This document shows positions 33,592 through 44,081 of a DNA stretch of 64,000 nucleotides, piece by piece. Every line of letters starts with the position of its first letter. Position 1 is the first letter of the stretch. The DNA comes from Escherichia coli (GTDB taxonomy: Bacteria; Pseudomonadota; Gammaproteobacteria; Enterobacterales; Enterobacteriaceae), in the NCBI RefSeq assembly GCF_022846255.1, contig NZ_AP025682.1. One strand, 5' to 3'. The notes under the pieces were generated by a model that was not told the origin of the DNA, did no database searches, and saw only the letters and a list, made by a program, of their open reading frames with translations. The translations under genes and the position numbers were made by a program.

Positions 33592-33674
33592 ACACCAGAT
33601 TCCTCTCATTTAAAATCGCCCAGCCTCCAGCATCTATACTTATCTTTTTGCTCTGTTTTCTCACTGGAGGAGTC

Positions 33675-35900
33675 ATGCGGTGGATCCTGTTCATCCTCTT
33701 CTGCCTGTTGGGCGCACCTGCCCACGCGGTATCCATACCCGGCGTTACAACCACAACGACAACGGACTCAACGACTGAACCGGCCCCGGAACCGGATATC
33801 GAACAAAAAAAAGCGGCCTATGGCGCACTGGCGGATGTGCTGGATAATGACACCTCGCGTAAAGAGTTGATCGACCAGTTGCGCACCGTCGCCGCGACGC
33901 CCCCTGCGGAACCCGTACCGAAGATCGTGCCGCCGACGCTGGTTGAAGAGCAAACCGTGCTGCAAAAGGTCACCGAAGTCAGCCGCCATTATGGTGAAGC
34001 CCTTTCCGCCCGCTTCGGGCAACTTTATCGCAATATCACCGGCTCCCCGCATAAGCCGTTTAATCCACAAACCTTCAGCAATGCGCTGACCCACTTTTCA
34101 ATGTTAGCGGTATTAGTGTTTGGTTTTTACTGGCTGATTCGTCTGTGCGCACTGCCGCTGTATCGCAAAATGGGCCAGTGGGCGCGGCAAAAAAATCGTG
34201 AGCGCAGTAACTGGTTGCAGCTTCCGGCGATGATCATCGGGGCGTTTATTATCGACCTGCTGTTACTGGCACTGACATTATTTGTCGGCCAGGTATTAAG
34301 CGACAACCTGAATGCGGGCAGTCGCACCATCGCTTTCCAACAAAGTTTGTTTCTCAACGCCTTTGCCCTGATTGAATTTTTCAAAGCCGTACTACGCCTG
34401 ATTTTTTGCCCAAACGTGGCTGAACTGCGCCCGTTCACGATTCATGACGAGACCGCCCGTTACTGGAGTCGTCGCCTGAGCTGGTTAAGCAGCCTGATTG
34501 GCTATGGTCTGATTGTGGCTGTGCCGATTATCTCTAATCAGGTGAATGTACAGATAGGTGCGCTGGCAAACGTCATCATTATGCTGTGCATGACCGTCTG
34601 GGCGTTGTACCTGATTTTTCGTAATAAAAAAGAGATCACCCAGCATTTGCTCAACTTTGCGGAGCATTCGCTGGCCTTTTTCAGCCTGTTTATCCGCGCC
34701 TTTGCGCTGGTGTGGCACTGGCTGGCAAGCGCCTATTTTATCGTGCTGTTTTTCTTTTCGTTGTTCGATCCGGGCAACAGCCTGAAATTTATGATGGGTG
34801 CAACGGTGCGCAGCCTGGCGATTATTGGTATCGCAGCATTTGTTTCCGGTATGTTTTCCCGCTGGCTGGCAAAAACCATCACCCTCTCGCCACATACTCA
34901 GCGTAACTATCCAGAACTGCAAAAACGGCTGAATGGCTGGCTTTCGGCGGCGCTGAAAACGGCGCGTATTCTGACCGTCTGCGTGGCGGTAATGTTGCTG
35001 TTGAGCGCATGGGGATTGTTCGATTTCTGGAACTGGCTGCAAAACGGCGCGGGGCAGAAAACCGTAGATATCCTGATCCGTATCGCACTCATTCTTTTCT
35101 TCTCGGCGGTTGGCTGGACGGTGCTCGCCAGTTTGATCGAAAACCGGCTGGCTTCGGATATTCATGGCCGCCCGCTACCCAGCGCCCGTACGCGAACCCT
35201 GCTGACGCTGTTCCGTAACGCGCTGGCGGTGATTATCAGTACCATCACCATCATGATTGTGTTGTCGGAAATCGGCGTCAATATCGCGCCATTGCTGGCA
35301 GGTGCCGGGGCATTAGGTCTGGCTATCTCGTTTGGTTCGCAAACGCTGGTGAAAGATATCATTACCGGAGTATTTATTCAGTTTGAAAACGGCATGAACA
35401 CTGGAGATTTGGTGACTATCGGGCCGTTGACCGGCACTGTGGAACGGATGTCGATTCGCTCCGTGGGCGTGCGCCAGGATACCGGGGCGTATCACATCAT
35501 TCCGTGGTCTTCGATAACCACCTTTGCTAACTTCGTCCGCGGTATTGGTTCGGTAGTGGCAAATTATGATGTTGATCGCCATGAAGATGCTGATAAAGCC
35601 AATCAGGCACTGAAAGATGCGGTAGCGGAATTAATGGAAAACGAAGAAATTCGCGGGCTGGTTATTGGTGAACCGAACTTTGCCGGGATTGTCGGCTTAA
35701 GCAATACCGCGTTTACACTGCGTGTTTCGTTCACCACGCTGCCACTCAAACAGTGGACGGTCCGCTTTGCCCTCGACAGCCAGGTGAAAAAACATTTCGA
35801 CCTGGCGGGTGTTCGCGCGCCGGTGCAGACTTATCAGGTGCTGCCAGCTCCGGGCGCGGCCCCGGCTGAACCGTTGCCGCCGGGGGAGCCAACGCTTTAA
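33675..35900 (+). CDS. ybiO: MscS-family mechanosensitive channel YbiO (741 aa)
   Basis: ORF track trimmed to [18 protein letters not shown] (signal peptide, GGAGGAG RBS); multiple TM helices plus MscS C-terminal domain. Confidence 0.9.
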
Positions 35901-36823
35901 CGCTGGCGATTGACAAAACGGCGGCGCTGCTCGTCGTTCATAAAGGTCCAGGCTATAAAGCGGCTCTGCTTTTGCCCCTGGGCCATCTCTTTTTTTACCA
36001 CCTTCACCGCACCTACGTCCGTCAGAGCACGATACAACGGCGGTAAGTTTTCACCACGAGATACCAGCGAGGTAAACCACATCACCTGCTTCGCGAAGCC
36101 TTTGCTCTCTTCAATCATCTTTTTGATAAAAGCGACCTCACCGCCTTCACACCACAACTCCTGTTGCTGACCACCAAAGTTCAGTGCATCGTCTTTGTTC
36201 AGCCCCAGGTTACGGCGTTTACGTTCACTACCTGCCCGTGCCGCAGCGGCGGAATCGTGGAATGGCGGGTTACACAAGGTCGCATCGTATTGCTCGTTTT
36301 TATGGATGATGCCGTTAAAAATCGCCCCACTCTCTTTTTGCCGACGCAGACGAATAGCGCGGTTAAGCCCCGGATTAGCACTGATGATCGCCTGCGCACT
36401 GCTTAACGCCTGGCTGCTGGTTTCACTACCGGTAAAACGCCAGCCATATTCATGTACGCCAATCAGCGGATAAATACAGTTCGCACCAACGCCGATATCC
36501 AGAATGCTGGCATTAGCTGGAATTGTTCCGCTTGCTTCAGCCAGTAAATCGGCAAGGTGATGAATATAATCCGCCCGGCCCGGTACTGGCGGGCAGAGAA
36601 AACCGTCCGGGATATCCCAGTTCGCTACGGCGTAAAAATGGGCCAGCAACGCCTTATTGAGCGCCTTCACCGCCAGCGGATTGGCAAAGTCTACGCTTTG
36701 CTCCCCGGTGGGTGTAAGCGTGAGGAATTGCCTGAGTTCAGGATTGACCTGACAAAGCGTGGCGAGATCGTAGCGGCTGTGATGACGGTTGCGCGGATGC
36801 AACCCCGGTTTCTGGGCGGACAT
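35897..36823 (-). CDS. rlmF: 23S rRNA m6A1618 methyltransferase RlmF (308 aa)
   Basis: ORF track trimmed to [20 protein letters not shown]; NPPF motif (LCNPPFH). Confidence 0.9.
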
Positions 36824-37098
36824 AGCATTCTCCTTTAAGCAGCGGCGTAAGATACTCGCATAACGCGACAGGGTAAATATCTGGCTGCGTTTATCATTTC
36901 TAAAAACCTTCACATGGATATGGTTTATGGCAATTCACCATAAAAATCATCATCATGCATGTCATTGATTTGTCTTATTTTGTAAAAATATATCGTTCAA
37001 AAAATAAGCGCATCTCTGTCAATTTTTTGCGTCATTTTCATCGCGCAGGCGACCTACACTTATCTGGCACTACCCGTTGTATTTATGAGGATGTCATT

Positions 37099-37359
37099 AT
37101 GAAAAAGTGCCTCACACTACTGATTGCCACCGTCCTGAGCGGAATCTCTCTCACGGCTTATGCCGCGCAACCGATGAGTAACCTGGACAGAGGTCAACTA
37201 CGGCCCGCCGGTACCGTTTCGGCAACTGGCGCATCAAACCTAAGCGATCTGGAGGATAAACTGGCAGAAAAAGCGCGCGAACAAGGCGCGAAAGGTTATG
37301 TCATTAATTCCGCAGGCGGAAATGACCAGATGTTCGGTACTGCAATCATCTACAAATAA
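37099..37359 (+). CDS. mcbA: DUF1471/YhcN-family small periplasmic protein McbA/YbiM (86 aa)
   Basis: ORF track trimmed to MKKCLTLLIATVLSGISLTAYA with GAGGA RBS; C-terminal GTAIIYK. Confidence 0.85.
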   Translation: MKKCLTLLIATVLSGISLTAYAAQPMSNLDRGQLRPAGTVSATGASNLSDLEDKLAEKAREQGAKGYVINSAGGNDQMFGTAIIYK

Positions 37360-37494
37360 CCCCACCAACGTAACTGCATTCGTCTCTGGATGCAGTTTTC
37401 GTCCGATTTGTAAGCAAAAAACATCAAATATGAACGCAATGTAAATAAATGTATTTCTTTTTCGCGCAATGGGTGATAGAAAATCGCGCCAAGT

Positions 37495-37519
37495 GATAAT
37501 GCTTATCAAAATTATTATC
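37495..37519 (+). promoter_or_regulatory. Fur box upstream of fiu
   Basis: gataatgcttatcaaaattattatc, close to GATAATGATAATCATTATC, about 105 nt upstream of the fiu ATG. Confidence 0.8.
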
Positions 37520-37623
37520 ACTTGCACGTACGCTATCACGGGATTAACAGTGGCATCGCATCCGCAGAGATGCTTTCTCGTGACAGTGAAAATTTCACCA
37601 TATAAGAAAAAGTCACCTGCAAA

Positions 37624-39906
37624 ATGGAAAACAATCGCAATTTCCCTGCCAGACAATTTCATTCGCTCACGTTCTTTGCCGGTCTTTGTATTGGTATTAC
37701 GCCTGTGGCACAGGCACTCGCTGCCGAAGGGCAAGCTAACGCGGATGACACGCTGGTTGTCGAAGCATCAACGCCTTCGCTTTATGCGCCACAACAATCT
37801 GCCGATCCGAAATTCTCGCGTCCGGTAGCGGATACTACCCGCACGATGACGGTGATTTCTGAACAAGTGATTAAAGATCAGGGTGCAACCAACCTTACCG
37901 ACGCACTCAAAAACGTCCCCGGCGTGGGTGCGTTTTTTGCGGGTGAGAACGGTAACTCCACCACTGGCGACGCCATTTATATGCGCGGTGCCGATACCTC
38001 TAACAGTATTTATATCGATGGCATTCGCGATATCGGCAGCGTCTCGCGCGACACCTTCAATACCGAGCAGGTCGAAGTAATTAAAGGGCCGTCCGGCACC
38101 GACTACGGGCGCAGCGCACCGACAGGCTCGATCAATATGATCAGCAAACAGCCGCGCAATGATTCCGGCATTGACGCCTCCGCCAGTATTGGCAGCGCCT
38201 GGTTCCGCCGCGGCACGCTGGACGTCAATCAGGTCATTGGTGATACCACTGCGGTGCGCCTGAATGTAATGGGCGAAAAAACGCACGATGCCGGACGCGA
38301 CAAAGTCAAAAATGAGCGTTACGGCGTCGCCCCTTCTGTCGCTTTTGGCCTTGGTACAGCGAATCGTTTGTATCTTAATTATCTGCATGTCACCCAGCAC
38401 AACACGCCAGACGGCGGCATTCCGACCATCGGTTTACCGGGTTATTCTGCCCCATCTGCGGGAACAGCAGCCCTGAATCATTCCGGAAAAGTTGATACTC
38501 ATAACTTTTACGGCACAGATTCCGATTACGACGATTCGACCACCGACACCGCTACCATGCGTTTTGAGCACGACATCAACGATAACACCACCATTCGCAA
38601 CACTACGCGTTGGTCGCGCGTAAAGCAGGATTACCTGATGACGGCGATTATGGGTGGAGCGTCGAATATTACCCAGCCCACCAGCGATGTGAATAGCTGG
38701 ACGTGGTCACGCACGGCGAATACCAAAGATGTGAGTAACAAAATTCTCACCAACCAGACCAACCTGACCTCGACGTTCTATACCGGCGCTATCGGTCATG
38801 ATCTCAGTACCGGCGTGGAATTTACCCGCGAAACACAGACTAACTATGGCGTTAATCCGGTGACGTTACCGGCGGTAAATATTTATCATCCTGACAGCAG
38901 CATTCATCCCGGCGGCCTGACGCGCAACGGCGCAAACGCCAATGGTCAGACGGATACCTTCGCAATTTATGCCTTCGATACGCTGCAAATCACCCGTGAT
39001 TTTGAGCTGAACGGCGGGATCCGTCTGGATAATTATCATACTGAATATGACAGTGCTACCGCCTGCGGCGGCAGCGGGCGCGGTGCCATCACCTGCCCTG
39101 CTGGCGTGGCAAAAGGTTCTCCGGTCACCACCGTCGACACCGCCAAGTCGGGCAATCTGGTGAACTGGAAAGCCGGGGCGCTGTATCACCTGACGGAAAA
39201 CGGCAATGTCTATATTAACTATGCCGTTTCCCAGCAGCCGCCGGGCGGCAACAACTTCGCCCTTGCGCAGTCTGGCAGCGGTAACAGTGCCAACCGCACC
39301 GATTTTAAACCACAAAAAGCCAACACCAGCGAGATTGGCACCAAATGGCAGGTTCTGGATAAACGCCTGCTACTTACCGCCGCGCTGTTCCGTACTGATA
39401 TTGAAAATGAAGTTGAGCAAAATGATGACGGGACTTATTCGCAATATGGTAAGAAACGTGTCGAAGGCTACGAGATATCCGTGGCCGGGAATATCACCCC
39501 CGCATGGCAGATGATTGGCGGCTATACCCAGCAAAAAGCAACTATCAAAAACGGCAAAGATGTTGCCCAGGATGGTTCCTCATCGCTGCCGTATACCCCG
39601 GAACACGCCTTCACCTTATGGAGCCAGTATCAGGCAACCGATGATATTTCTGTTGGTGCGGGCGCACGGTATATCGGCAGTATGCATAAAGTTTCAGACG
39701 GCGCGGTGGGGACGCCAGCATTTACCGAAGGTTATTGGGTCGCCGACGCCAAACTGGGGTATCGGGTTAATCGCAATCTCGACTTCCAGCTAAACGTCTA
39801 CAACCTGTTTGATACCGATTACGTCGCCTCAATCAATAAGAGCGGCTACCGTTATCACCCGGGCGAGCCAAGAACCTTCTTGCTCACAGCTAATATGCAT
39901 TTCTGA
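37624..39906 (+). CDS. fiu: TonB-dependent catecholate siderophore receptor Fiu (760 aa)
   Basis: ORF track; signal peptide, TonB box, C-terminal aromatic residue ...NMHF. Confidence 0.95.
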   Translation: MENNRNFPARQFHSLTFFAGLCIGITPVAQALAAEGQANADDTLVVEASTPSLYAPQQSADPKFSRPVADTTRTMTVISEQVIKDQGATNLTDALKNVPGVGAFFAGENGNSTTGDAIYMRGADTSNSIYIDGIRDIGSVSRDTFNTEQVEVIKGPSGTDYGRSAPTGSINMISKQPRNDSGIDASASIGSAWFRRGTLDVNQVIGDTTAVRLNVMGEKTHDAGRDKVKNERYGVAPSVAFGLGTANRLYLNYLHVTQHNTPDGGIPTIGLPGYSAPSAGTAALNHSGKVDTHNFYGTDSDYDDSTTDTATMRFEHDINDNTTIRNTTRWSRVKQDYLMTAIMGGASNITQPTSDVNSWTWSRTANTKDVSNKILTNQTNLTSTFYTGAIGHDLSTGVEFTRETQTNYGVNPVTLPAVNIYHPDSSIHPGGLTRNGANANGQTDTFAIYAFDTLQITRDFELNGGIRLDNYHTEYDSATACGGSGRGAITCPAGVAKGSPVTTVDTAKSGNLVNWKAGALYHLTENGNVYINYAVSQQPPGGNNFALAQSGSGNSANRTDFKPQKANTSEIGTKWQVLDKRLLLTAALFRTDIENEVEQNDDGTYSQYGKKRVEGYEISVAGNITPAWQMIGGYTQQKATIKNGKDVAQDGSSSLPYTPEHAFTLWSQYQATDDISVGAGARYIGSMHKVSDGAVGTPAFTEGYWVADAKLGYRVNRNLDFQLNVYNLFDTDYVASINKSGYRYHPGEPRTFLLTANMHF

Positions 39907-39956
39907 TTCAGATGTGGGGCGCAAGGCTCACTAATGTTGATGGCGAGAGCAGGACT

Positions 39957-40054
39957 GCCTGATGCGCTGCGCTTATCAGGCCTACAAGGTTGTGCAATAC
40001 ACTGAATTCACATCATTTGGTAGGCCGGATAAGGCGTTCACGCCGCATCCGGCA
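39957..40054. repeat. BIME: two inverted REP units with a roughly 34-nt linker
   Basis: gcctgatgcgctgcgcttatcaggcctac ... gtaggccggataaggcgttcacgccgcatccggca. Confidence 0.85.
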
Positions 40055-40084
40055 CCTGAGCACCATTGCCTGCTGTTAAAAATC

Positions 40085-40110
40085 GGTGTGGGGCGCAGGC
40101 CCCACTTTTT
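40085..40110 (+). terminator. hairpin plus T5 just upstream of ybiX
   Basis: gtgggg-cgcag-gcccca-c stem followed by TTTTT, 12 nt before the ybiX ATG. Confidence 0.5.
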
Positions 40111-40121
40111 GGAGAACTTGT

Positions 40122-40799
40122 ATGATGTACCACATTCCCGGCGTGTTATCGCCACAGGACGTCGCCCGTTTTCGCGAACAACTGGAACAAGCCGAATGGG
40201 TGGATGGGCGCGTCACCACCGGCGCACAAGGTGCGCAAGTTAAGAACAATCAACAAGTAGACACCCGCAGCGCCCTGTACGCCGCCCTGCAAAATGAGGT
40301 GCTGAACGCGGTTAACCAACATGCTTTGTTCTTTGCCGCGGCCTTGCCGCGTACCCTTTCCACGCCGCTGTTTAATCGCTATCAGAACAATGAAACCTAT
40401 GGTTTTCATGTGGATGGCGCAGTACGCAGCCATCCACAAAACGGCTGGATGCGCACTGACCTTTCTGCCACGCTGTTTTTAAGCGATCCAGAAAGCTACG
40501 ACGGCGGCGAACTGGTCGTTAATGACACCTTCGGGCAACATCGGGTAAAACTCCCGGCAGGCGATCTGGTGTTGTATCCCTCCAGCAGCCTGCATTGCGT
40601 GACACCCGTAACCCGCGGCGTGCGAGTGGCATCATTTATGTGGATCCAGTCGATGATCCGCGATGATAAAAAGCGCGCCATGCTGTTTGAACTGGACAAC
40701 AATATTCAGTCGCTGAAAAGCCACTACGGCGAAAGTGAAGAGATCCTGTCGCTGCTCAATCTTTATCATAATCTGCTGCGGGAATGGTCGGAGATCTGA
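40122..40799 (+). CDS. ybiX: Fe(II)/2-oxoglutarate-dependent PKHD-type hydroxylase YbiX (225 aa)
   Basis: ORF track trimmed to [12 protein letters not shown]; HxD...H iron motif (FHVDGAV ... SSLHCVT). Confidence 0.9.
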
Positions 40800-40872
40800 C
40801 GCTTGAACTGCCCGAGTTCGTCCCTATATTAGCTACACTTAACTGTACAAGCATTGATATGGGGAGGACGAT

Positions 40873-41139
40873 ATGGCATCCGGTTGGGCTAATGATGACG
40901 CCGTCAACGAACAGATCAACAGTACAATTGAAGATGCGATTGCCCGCGCTCGGGGTGAAATTCCGCGTGGCGAAAGCCTGTATGAATGTGAAGAGTGCGG
41001 AGCCCTCATCCCGCAGGCCCGTCGGGAAGCCATTCCTGGCGTGCGCTTATGCATTCATTGTCAGCAGGAGAAAGATTTACAAAAACCAGATTATACAGGA
41101 TATAATCGCAGAGGTTCGAAAGACAGCCAGTTACGTTAA
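40873..41139 (+). CDS. ybiI: DksA/TraR-family C4 zinc-finger protein YbiI (88 aa)
   Basis: ORF track; CxxC-N17-CxxC (YECEECGALI...LCIHCQQ). Confidence 0.9.
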   Translation: MASGWANDDAVNEQINSTIEDAIARARGEIPRGESLYECEECGALIPQARREAIPGVRLCIHCQQEKDLQKPDYTGYNRRGSKDSQLR

Positions 41140-41403
41140 CTACAACTGGCGGGATGTATAGCGAATATAATTTGGATTTTGCGTGGCATTCCGTGCCTTT
41201 AACGCTACCGTGACTGCCACGCGGTATAAAACAAGTTCATAAGTACAACAAATAAATGGTTTATCAGTATGTTAGATATCAATCAATTTATTTGAACAAG
41301 GCGGTCAATTCTCTTCGATTTTATCTCTCGAAAAAAAACGTGATACTCATCACATCGACGAAACAACGTCACTTATACAAAAATCACCTGCGAGAGATTA
41401 ATT

Positions 41404-41664
41404 ATGAAAACTATCAATACTGTTGTTGCTGCTATGGCTCTTTCAACTCTGTCATTTGGCGTGTTCGCGGCGGAACCGGTAACGGCATCCCAGGCACAGA
41501 ACATGAATAAAATCGGCGTGGTTTCTGCCGATGGCGCATCCACCCTCGATGCCCTGGAAGCGAAACTGGCTGAGAAAGCCGCGGCGGCCGGTGCCAGTGG
41601 ATACAGCATTACTTCCGCCACCAACAACAATAAATTAAGCGGTACTGCGGTAATTTATAAGTAA
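41404..41664 (+). CDS. ybiJ: DUF1471/YhcN-family small periplasmic protein YbiJ (86 aa)
   Basis: ORF track; signal peptide; C-terminal GTAVIYK; paralog of mcbA. Confidence 0.9.
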   Translation: MKTINTVVAAMALSTLSFGVFAAEPVTASQAQNMNKIGVVSADGASTLDALEAKLAEKAAAAGASGYSITSATNNNKLSGTAVIYK

Positions 41665-41667
41665 TTC

Positions 41668-41744
41668 GTAGGACGGATAAGGCGTTTACGCCGCATCCGG
41701 CAACAGATGCCTGATGCGACGCTACCGCGTCTTATCAGACCTAC
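41668..41744. repeat. BIME (two REP units, short linker), with a further partial REP about 20 nt downstream
   Basis: gtaggacggataaggcgtttacgccgcatccggca - acagat - gcctgatgcgacgctaccgcgtcttatcagacctac. Confidence 0.85.
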
Positions 41745-41864
41745 AAAATCCGAACCGTTGGCTGGATCAGGCGTTTACGCTACGTTCAGCACAAGTATTT
41801 CCCTGTCTGTTTGCCGACAGACGCATATGCTCTAACCCTCATTGATCCTATGTTACCCTTGTTT

Positions 41865-41892
41865 GCCCGTCCGCCACTGGACGGGCTTTTTT

Positions 41893-41894
<2 letters not shown>
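41865..41894 (+). terminator. rho-independent terminator (hairpin plus T8), overlapping the ybiC stop codon
   Basis: gcccgtcc-gccactg-gacgggc followed by tttttttt. Confidence 0.75.

Positions 41895-44081
<2,187 letters not shown>

Follow-up and report, generated by a model that had tools for sequence, protein, structure and literature searches.

Proteins of the DUF1471/YhcN/BhsA-McbA family are single-domain polypeptides of ~90 amino acids (aa) that carry signal peptides, and the family description of Eletsky et al. 2014 (PMC4092069), which already lists mcbA and ybiJ, divides them into subfamilies that are >50% identical internally and 20-47% identical to one another. The same paper reports adjacent family genes, namely yjfN/yjfO and yhcN with a ycfR-like gene, and a 2025 study names YbiJ as a paralog of McbA. 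Here we analyse a stretch of 64,000 nt from Escherichia coli (contig NZ_AP025682.1; the window) in which mcbA (ybiM; 37099-37359, plus strand) and ybiJ (41404-41664, plus strand), two genes for 86-aa periplasmic DUF1471 proteins, stand on either side of the iron block fiu-ybiX-ybiI. An initial annotation of this locus had read the arrangement as a local duplication near a Fur-controlled unit that may reflect shared regulation. The paralogy of McbA and YbiJ, their family, the genes themselves and Fur control of fiu are already known. What the bracketing adds is, very probably, a record of genome history, in which two old paralogs surround the iron block in independent units, and not a regulatory design.

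McbA and YbiJ align over their 86 residues in BLASTP with 40 identities (47%, E = 2e-16) and no gap. Identity is lowest in the signal peptide (8/22), rises to 32/64 in the mature protein and reaches 30/53 (57%) in the PF07338 domain, so that the similarity extends beyond the signal peptide. The Pfam PF07338 match at residues 34-86 spans the whole 55-position model in both proteins (70.6 bits for McbA and 64.8 bits for YbiJ; cut-off 27), and each protein is recognized by an NCBIfam model of its own (NF040473 with 170.1 bits and NF007611 with 173.1 bits; cut-off 110 for both). As to the mixed alpha+beta fold that SrfN, YahO and YdgH exemplify in the family, the solved chains 2noc and 2ma4 gave only distant matches to the pair (E about 1e-4), and a published AlphaFold model of YbiJ is described in the 2025 study as resembling YdgH and RcsF. 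Both N-termini have a lysine-rich n-region, a hydrophobic core and an AxA-type site (AYA|A and VFA|A). These features support Sec signal peptides, as the initial annotation had assumed for both proteins, in agreement with the signal sequence stated in the DUF1471 literature and with the envelope enrichment of a YbiJ-msfGFP fusion (2025 study). The named DUF1471 homologs that we found all come from Enterobacteriaceae, in line with a family restricted to Enterobacterales. McbA and YbiJ thus fit the subfamily pattern of PMC4092069 and are no different in kind from the proteins described there.

The window belongs to the E. coli chromosome. Over 6 kb around the locus it is 99.9% identical to NZ_CP065152, and of 5426 complete E. 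coli genomes, 5415 cover this block to at least 80%. RefSeq gives the order mcbA, fiu, ybiX, ybiI, ybiJ on one strand in NZ_CP065152, and all five are annotated E. coli core genes. The bracketing itself is therefore confirmed: the open reading frames (ORFs) of mcbA and ybiJ lie exactly where the initial annotation had placed them, they end in the C-terminal sequences it had quoted, and the RefSeq order agrees. Its identification of the three enclosed genes is likewise borne out by domain models. These genes, all on the plus strand, encode the TonB-dependent catecholate siderophore receptor Fiu with its plug (37624-39906; also an ORF and RefSeq call), the PKHD-type Fe(II)/2-oxoglutarate (2OG) hydroxylase YbiX, composed of 2OG-Fe(II) oxygenase and PKHD_C domains (40122-40799), and the DksA/TraR-type C4 zinc-finger protein YbiI (40873-41139).

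Synteny was followed in 80 YbiX-anchored loci from species-representative genomes, onto which the window proteins were mapped and in which DUF1471 ORFs were sought with a hidden Markov model of the family. The order rlmF, McbA-type gene, fiu, ybiX, ybiI, ybiJ, (hcxB), ybiB is present in Escherichia, Citrobacter, Leclercia, Silvania, Pseudocitrobacter vendiensis, Raoultella and one Enterobacter sp. A Klebsiella metagenome-assembled genome (MAG) shows the same mcbA-fiu-ybiX-ybiI order on a contig that stops within ybiI and so does not cover the ybiJ slot, and Kluyvera has the same order but without ybiI (fiu-ybiX-ybiJ) in all of its loci (L023, L027, L029, L030, L033, L034). YbiJ is 70-85% identical across the genera that share the arrangement. 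The McbA-type protein in the slot upstream of fiu (slot 1) is 44-73% identical; a McbA signature can still be recognized in it, and the McbA model gives it its highest score. For Leclercia this score is 132.4 bits on NF040473, above the cut-off of 110, and for Kluyvera (86.7) and the Klebsiella MAG (73.4) it is the best score yet falls below that cut-off, which points to divergent syntenic orthologs of McbA. Since the within-group distance is 0.48 for McbA and 0.25 for YbiJ, and given the low slot-1 identities, the evolution of McbA is about twice as rapid as that of YbiJ. Several lineages have lost mcbA while keeping the iron block (L019, L022, L025, L028, L034, L035), and Eletsky et al. (PMC4092069) report that the gene is also missing from Salmonella.

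Farther away the flanks disappear. Pantoea, Serratia, Rouxiella and Tatumella carry fiu-ybiX in another context and have no DUF1471 flanks, and more than 30 non-enteric proteobacterial loci carry only a TonB receptor together with a YbiX homolog; among the 80 fetched loci, no DUF1471 gene was found beside the receptor and YbiX pair in any non-enteric locus. The hydroxylase gene is accompanied by the receptor gene throughout, outside the enterics too. Receptor and hydroxylase thus form the conserved functional core, to which core Enterobacteriaceae alone add ybiI and the DUF1471 flanks. The absence of ybiI from all Kluyvera loci, together with a score that barely reaches the cut-off of the TraR subfamily of phage and conjugative plasmid zinc-finger proteins (59.8 versus 59.7 bits), suggests that ybiI is a later addition to the block, perhaps acquired from a mobile element.

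Did mcbA and ybiJ arise side by side? Proximity within 10 kb was compared with random placement for the nine DUF1471 genes of K-12. By chance, one or more such pairs would be seen with a probability of 0.145, and the four pairs (P = 0.00009) and two clusters (P = 0.007) that are observed make the proximity statistically non-random. In the yjfN-bsmA(-yjfY) cluster, too, family members lie less than 10 kb apart, in support of local duplication as a recurrent mode in the family. In Pluralibacter gergoviae, moreover, the orthologs of McbA (60% identity) and YbiJ (76%) stand in direct tandem with a 442-nt spacer (L095 7001-8072, and L096) and have consecutive GenBank protein accessions, on the same glnHPQ-ybiO-rlmF ... 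ybiB-dinG backbone, from which the whole iron block is missing. That spacer holds neither a Fur box (best match 12/19) nor a trace of the fiu promoter, a result that fits an insertion of the iron block between tandem copies as well as its clean deletion in Pluralibacter. The McbA-YbiJ mean inter-group distance (0.95) is smaller than those of YbiJ-BhsA (1.07) and McbA-BhsA (1.14), in spite of the roughly twofold faster evolution of McbA; mcbA and ybiJ also lie on one strand, are equally long and encode products that align gaplessly. On these grounds a local, tandem origin is plausible.

Whatever its mode, the origin is certainly old. The coding sequences of mcbA and ybiJ are 51% identical, falling to 31% at third codon positions, and their flanks are no more alike than shuffled sequences, the observed score being reached by 101/300, 85/300 and 262/400 shuffles; such values indicate an ancient duplication and not a recent one.

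Other observations speak against McbA and YbiJ being each other's exclusive sister groups. Neighbor-joining bootstraps on 119, 32 and 29 taxa recover McbA, YbiJ and BhsA each as monophyletic (84-94%), whereas McbA+YbiJ receives only 12-37%, McbA+BhsA 16-24% and YbiJ+BhsA 10-15%, so that the tree does not back such an origin; with 63 alignment columns, there are too few positions to resolve the order of the three groups by this method. The second-best NCBIfam model of McbA and YbiJ is that of BhsA (101 and 116 bits), and not each other's (75 and 81 bits). Finally, ybiJ and bhsA have in common a 3' untranslated region (UTR) element, described below, that points away from an exclusive pairing of McbA with YbiJ. 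On the strength of such data one might propose that there was no local duplication, ybiJ being nearest to bhsA (or to yhcN) and mcbA having reached the neighboring slot independently. Among the K-12 paralogs, YbiJ does match BhsA best (74 bits; McbA, 72). High-affinity CRP sites are present at both ybiJ and yhcN, and an AQAQN motif is common to the mature N-termini of their products. The BLAST bit scores are nearly equal in all directions, with 71 for McbA-BhsA, and the 3'UTR element could have been lost by mcbA, or mcbA could have been copied without it. Given the non-random clustering and the Pluralibacter tandem, we consider separate arrival doubtful, although it deserves serious attention. 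The "local duplication" of the initial annotation accordingly stands as regards paralogy, bracketing and a plausible local origin, for which clustering, the Pluralibacter tandem and the smallest distance speak, but it does not amount to a demonstration, since McbA, YbiJ and BhsA are almost equidistant, the bootstrap for the pair is low and the 3'UTR connects ybiJ with bhsA.

The supposed connection with iron fares less well. Scanning for the Fur consensus places an array of four overlapping matches of 13-15/19, in 6-bp phase, over the fiu promoter (37489-37525). The Fur box upstream of fiu is kept at 15-16/19 in all seven genera scanned, at ~120-200 nt upstream of the gene and at about -130 in six of the seven. 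With the strict consensus (three mismatches or fewer) no site is found in the window, and the relaxed scan finds only the fiu array. The best matches at mcbA, ybiI and ybiJ (13/19, 10/19 and 12/19) are at the level of background, 46 sites in the window reaching 13/19. In Klebsiella and Kluyvera, an AT-rich block that precedes ybiJ was considered as a Fur-like box and rejected; it is the YhaJ box discussed below, and its best Fur match is 12/19. These results agree with a Fur pan-regulon study in which fiu is a core Fur-regulon gene and the Fur-1 iModulon holds fiu, ybiX and ybiI, and whose main text and Fur-1/Fur-2 iModulon tables do not mention mcbA or ybiJ. With no Fur box at either gene and both outside the published Fur-1 iModulon, the Fur-linked regulation that had been suggested for the flanking pair finds no support.

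One could nevertheless regard mcbA and ybiJ as functionally coupled to fiu-ybiX-ybiI in a stress and iron module, co-regulated through Fur or through read-through. The mcbA-fiu-ybiX-ybiI-ybiJ arrangement is conserved across many genera, and ybiI follows the Fur regulon without a Fur box of its own, so that signals can cross gene borders. Interactome data also contain chimeras of the ybiJ-derived RNA ZbiJ with fepA under iron starvation. Egg white is an iron-restricted medium. A published ybiJ deletion of Salmonella Enteritidis survives poorly in it. On the other hand, several lineages have dropped mcbA and retained the iron block, Pluralibacter retains mcbA and ybiJ without the iron block and with an unchanged ybiJ promoter, and fiu-ybiX pairs outside the core Enterobacteriaceae clade never have DUF1471 neighbors. 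Combined with the background-level Fur matches and the silence of the pan-regulon study, these facts already largely refute such a module at the level of transcription, and we regard it as highly improbable overall.

The control region of ybiJ is, by contrast with this lack of a Fur box, well furnished. The box of the LysR-type activator YhaJ, AATCAATTTATTTGAAC (41281-41297, plus strand), was located by mapping published mutations, by matrix scan and by conservation. Binding of YhaJ at ybiJ has been documented by electrophoretic mobility shift assay and point mutants, and induction by hydroquinone is lost in a yhaJ deletion; the positions reported as essential, C-120 and T-112/-111, map to 41284 and 41292/41293. 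With a leave-one-out matrix from four other YhaJ sites, the box is the top site in the window (22 bits), and its pattern (TCA-N7-TGA; T-N11-A) is conserved at about -122 in all genera. Between this box and the start codon lies a high-affinity CRP site, AAACGTGATACTCATCACATCG (41336-41357), a palindrome that emerged de novo from cross-genus footprinting, with 9/10 core match to TGTGA-N6-TCACA. It is identical to a published Footprint-seq site (dissociation constant about 1.9 nM in vitro), ybiJ is a CRP target in genomic SELEX (systematic evolution of ligands by exponential enrichment), and the site is nearly invariant across genera. The window scan finds no comparable CRP site upstream of mcbA. 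For the yhcN paralog, a published high-affinity CRP site lies just downstream of a TATACT -10-like hexamer.

The position of the CRP site, taken with the published observation that YbiJ-msfGFP is detectable only in glucose medium and not in alanine, glycerol or arabinose, which its authors left unexplained, leads us to infer that cAMP-CRP represses ybiJ, and the site may thus account for that puzzle. The ybiJ promoter is homologous across genera whether its upstream neighbor is ybiI, ybiX (Kluyvera) or mcbA (Pluralibacter), from which it follows that ybiJ control is autonomous. A promoter that combines a YhaJ box with a high-affinity CRP site, both kept across genera, may be useful to researchers working on y-genes.

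mcbA appears to be controlled differently. Cross-genus footprinting reveals an inverted repeat in its promoter region (36995-37031, plus strand), with arms GTTCAAAAAAT (36995-37005) and CAATTTTTTGCG (37020-37031), and a -10-like element, CCTACACTTAT (37053-37063, plus strand), that is conserved in all genera footprinted. The extended -10 of sigma-S promoters reads KCTAYRCTTAA. By this comparison, CCTACACTTAT may be a sigma-S-like extended -10, and published SELEX data report no sigma-S peak in the rlmF|mcbA spacer. Downstream of mcbA, a hairpin with a U-run (37368-37406, plus strand; fold -15.4 kcal/mol, z = -3.6) is a likely intrinsic terminator and, judged by its predicted fold, is likely to insulate mcbA from fiu; a simple terminator scan did not call it, its loop and U-run being outside the scan rules. 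McbR is described as the repressor of mcbA (Zhang et al. 2008, as cited in later papers). Its motif at mcbA was set aside as a candidate, being described only as an AT-rich 'ATATAT' preference, which is too vague; ATATAT occurs at about 36989-36994. Local alignments of the regions up- and downstream of mcbA, ybiJ, bhsA and yhcN yielded no significant common motif, with a marginal alignment for the ybiJ and bhsA upstream regions (21/400 shuffles). The upstream regions of mcbA and ybiJ therefore show no more likeness than the shuffled controls, and the regulators on record are distinct: mcbA has McbR, and ybiJ has YhaJ together with CRP. Neither the sequence, nor the comparison of genera, nor published regulon data support the idea that the two genes share regulation with a Fur unit.

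There is one condition to which both genes respond. In enterohemorrhagic E. coli (EHEC) transcriptomes from 11 conditions, radish sprouts specifically induce ybiJ (log2 6.6) and ybiM/mcbA (log2 7.5), with co-induction of the YhaJ targets ygiD and yhhW, and ybiJ and mcbA diverge in the other conditions. This is the only common behavior found for the two genes, and it is not an iron signal. It could be explained if both belonged to the YhaJ regulon and answered quinone or aromatic stress in plant tissue, as ybiJ, ygiD and yhhW are direct YhaJ targets. Support for this idea may be seen in the left arm of the mcbA inverted repeat, which reads ATTTTTTGAAC on the minus strand and corresponds to the right half of a YhaJ box; the YhaJ matrix gives it 7-9 bits at a fixed position of -104 in Escherichia, Citrobacter, Leclercia and Silvania, among the top 0.006-0.02% of window positions. 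A full YhaJ box at mcbA was rejected, as only this right half-site is present, and the missing left TCA arm includes the C that is essential in published mutants. In addition, mcbA is not among the 17 hydroquinone-induced promoters of a published GFP library screen, and the sprouts were harvested from late exponential to early stationary phase, when sigma-S or relief from McbR could explain the induction of mcbA. Common YhaJ control is for these reasons improbable, if somewhat less so than coupling to iron.

The 3' end of ybiJ carries a further element that mcbA lacks. ZbiJ (asYbiE), a verified Hfq-associated small RNA (sRNA) from the ybiJ 3'UTR, maps to 41792-41894 (plus strand), its K-12 coordinates 837,435-837,531 having been transferred via the CRP site. 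It contains the conserved core AACCCTCATT at 41834-41843 and ends at a predicted terminator (41865-41886, followed by eight T), with a fold of -28.6 kcal/mol (z = -4.3). The core GCUCCAACCCUCAUUGA and the terminator are kept downstream of ybiJ in Escherichia, Citrobacter, Leclercia, Silvania, Pseudocitrobacter, Kluyvera and Pluralibacter; the core is conserved in 30 loci, and the terminator stem shows compensatory changes. BhsB, the sRNA of the bhsA 3'UTR (L082 9304-9403, L090-L093), bears UAACCCUCAUUAAUGCC directly after the stop codon. The score of the alignment between ZbiJ and BhsB is reached by only 4/500 shuffles, and the core common to the two is AACCCUCAUU, i.e., (U)AACCCUCAUUrA. As an exact 10-mer, it occurs once per ybiJ locus, once at bhsA and nowhere else in ~1.3 Mb of fetched DNA. 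The 12-mer is matched 12/12 only at bhsA and ybiJ among the 3'UTRs of the nine K-12 paralogs, and no mcbA 3'UTR of any genus exceeds 10/12. The core has been kept at bhsA in E. coli, Salmonella and Leclercia while the remainder of the 3'UTR diverged. Rfam contains no family for ZbiJ or BhsB, and its models gave only matches of the type naRNA4, a repetitive extragenic palindromic (REP) element.

The conserved core suggests an inherited and selected RNA arm of the ybiJ and bhsA loci. It groups ybiJ with bhsA, or implies a loss in mcbA, and is a further argument against taking mcbA and ybiJ for a simple pair of recent local origin. We tentatively propose, at somewhat less than even chances, that ZbiJ and BhsB, with their common single-stranded core, are a paralogous sRNA pair that was inherited through gene duplication and has overlapping targets, mcbA being a copy without the RNA arm. 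If so, DUF1471 envelope-stress genes would be coupled to post-transcriptional control, the published chimeras including rpoS, fepA, ompC and ytfK. In Klebsiella, the 3'UTR cores of ybiJ (L028/L035) and of bhsA (K. pneumoniae, L091) are both now of the ACCCUGU...ACCCUUGCC type, and this parallel change could reflect co-evolution with a common target or gene conversion; if the proposal is true, co-evolution would be the expected reading. In published interactome data, ZbiJ is paired with rpoS mRNA and, mostly under iron starvation, with fepA mRNA, although their authors caution that the latter chimeras may merely reflect the abundance of fepA. Beyond this pairing, no connection with iron was found for mcbA or ybiJ.

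Taken as a whole, the data describe mcbA and ybiJ as ancient members of a family of small, Sec-exported stress proteins of the periplasm, which hold two fixed slots in the rlmF-ybiB locus of core Enterobacteriaceae. They most probably began as neighboring tandem copies, and in most genera the Fur-controlled pair fiu-ybiX, probably joined by ybiI at a later stage, lies between them. The block would comprise four independent transcription units. The mcbA unit has its own promoter, with the conserved inverted repeat and a putative sigma-S-like -10, is repressed by McbR and probably ends in its own terminator. The fiu-ybiX unit starts from a promoter overlapped by the Fur-box array. The ybiI unit has its own sigma-S promoter and yet co-varies with the Fur regulon; a promoter scan finds a promoter-like site for it, TTGAAC-16-TATATT (40803-40830, plus strand), and published SELEX data place a constitutive sigma-S promoter in the ybiX|ybiI spacer. 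The ybiJ unit is activated by YhaJ via the T-N11-A box, with the CRP site placed over or just downstream of the predicted core promoter, and ends in the 3'UTR that yields ZbiJ.

Several points pull against this picture of independent units. The presence of ybiI in the Fur-1 iModulon without its own Fur box indicates some read-through across the block, which might extend into ybiJ. The promoter geometry of the block is a prediction from nucleotide sequence. The radish-sprout response shows that ybiJ and mcbA can answer one condition, and the conserved YhaJ-type half-site at mcbA leaves room for a common input. Finally, the ZbiJ-fepA chimeras obtained by RIL-seq (RNA interaction by ligation and sequencing) under iron starvation are a possible post-transcriptional link to iron.

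We nonetheless retain the reading of the bracketing as genome history. In practical terms, nearness to a Fur unit should not serve to annotate mcbA or ybiJ as iron-regulated. The original finding matters little in itself, as the bracketing points to no new regulatory unit, and its value is mostly negative and clarifying. The P. gergoviae tandem offers a natural comparison of the two genes with and without the iron block.

Other features of the locus concern the surroundings of these genes. Upstream, rlmF (35897-36823, minus strand; RefSeq annotation) borders mcbA, and the mechanosensitive channel gene ybiO (33648-35900) is intact in the window and annotated as frameshifted in NZ_CP065152, the nearest RefSeq genome. 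Raoultella, Klebsiella, Kluyvera, Pseudocitrobacter and Pluralibacter carry a 204-aa flavin-reductase-family gene (PF01613) between rlmF and mcbA (e.g., L031 4331-4945 and L095 6333-6947), which Escherichia, Citrobacter and Leclercia lack. The fiu-ybiX spacer (39907-40121) is polymorphic in length, measuring 216 nt in the window and in E. whittamii, from a REP-type insertion, and ~45 nt in several other Escherichia genomes (e.g., L003, L005, L006). The repeat, at 40023-40101, is a sub-threshold naRNA4 (RF02564) match of 48 bits, and its assignment draws on the 6-kb block query, which matched a median of 38 places per genome. A second REP element (Rfam naRNA4; 41671-41741, plus strand; RF02564, 72.7 bits, gathering score 59.5) lies between the ybiJ stop and the sRNA; this insertion is specific to Escherichia, and other genera, whose 3'UTRs are shorter, lack it. 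The annotated 19-aa small ORF ybiE (41767-41826, minus strand; RefSeq and literature) is antisense to the 5' part of ZbiJ and is placed inside or beside REP-derived sequence. Downstream follows hcxB (41893-42978, minus strand; RefSeq annotation).

Comparison with described systems places these results in context. The yjfN-bsmA(-yjfY) cluster of E. coli likewise consists of DUF1471 paralogs within 10 kb, but yjfN and bsmA are directly adjacent, whereas three unrelated genes stand between mcbA and ybiJ in most genera, and Pluralibacter alone has the two side by side. As regards the iron block, fiu-ybiX resembles the PiuA/PiuC-type pairs of TonB receptor and PKHD hydroxylase in being conserved far outside enterics, and a Fur box precedes it in those enteric loci that were examined; unlike such pairs elsewhere, it has DUF1471 flanks and a following ybiI only in core Enterobacteriaceae. 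ZbiJ and BhsB have both been described as 3'UTR-derived Hfq sRNAs, from the 3' ends of what are DUF1471 mRNAs (Bar et al. 2021, PMC8175672; Han and Lory 2021, PMC8545128). Their relation to each other is not described in the portions of these papers that were searched, and to it we add the common core. To the family description in PMC4092069, finally, this analysis adds the McbA-type gene upstream of fiu in many genera beyond Escherichia, an McbA evolution rate about twice that of YbiJ, and a branching order of McbA, YbiJ and BhsA that is not resolvable.

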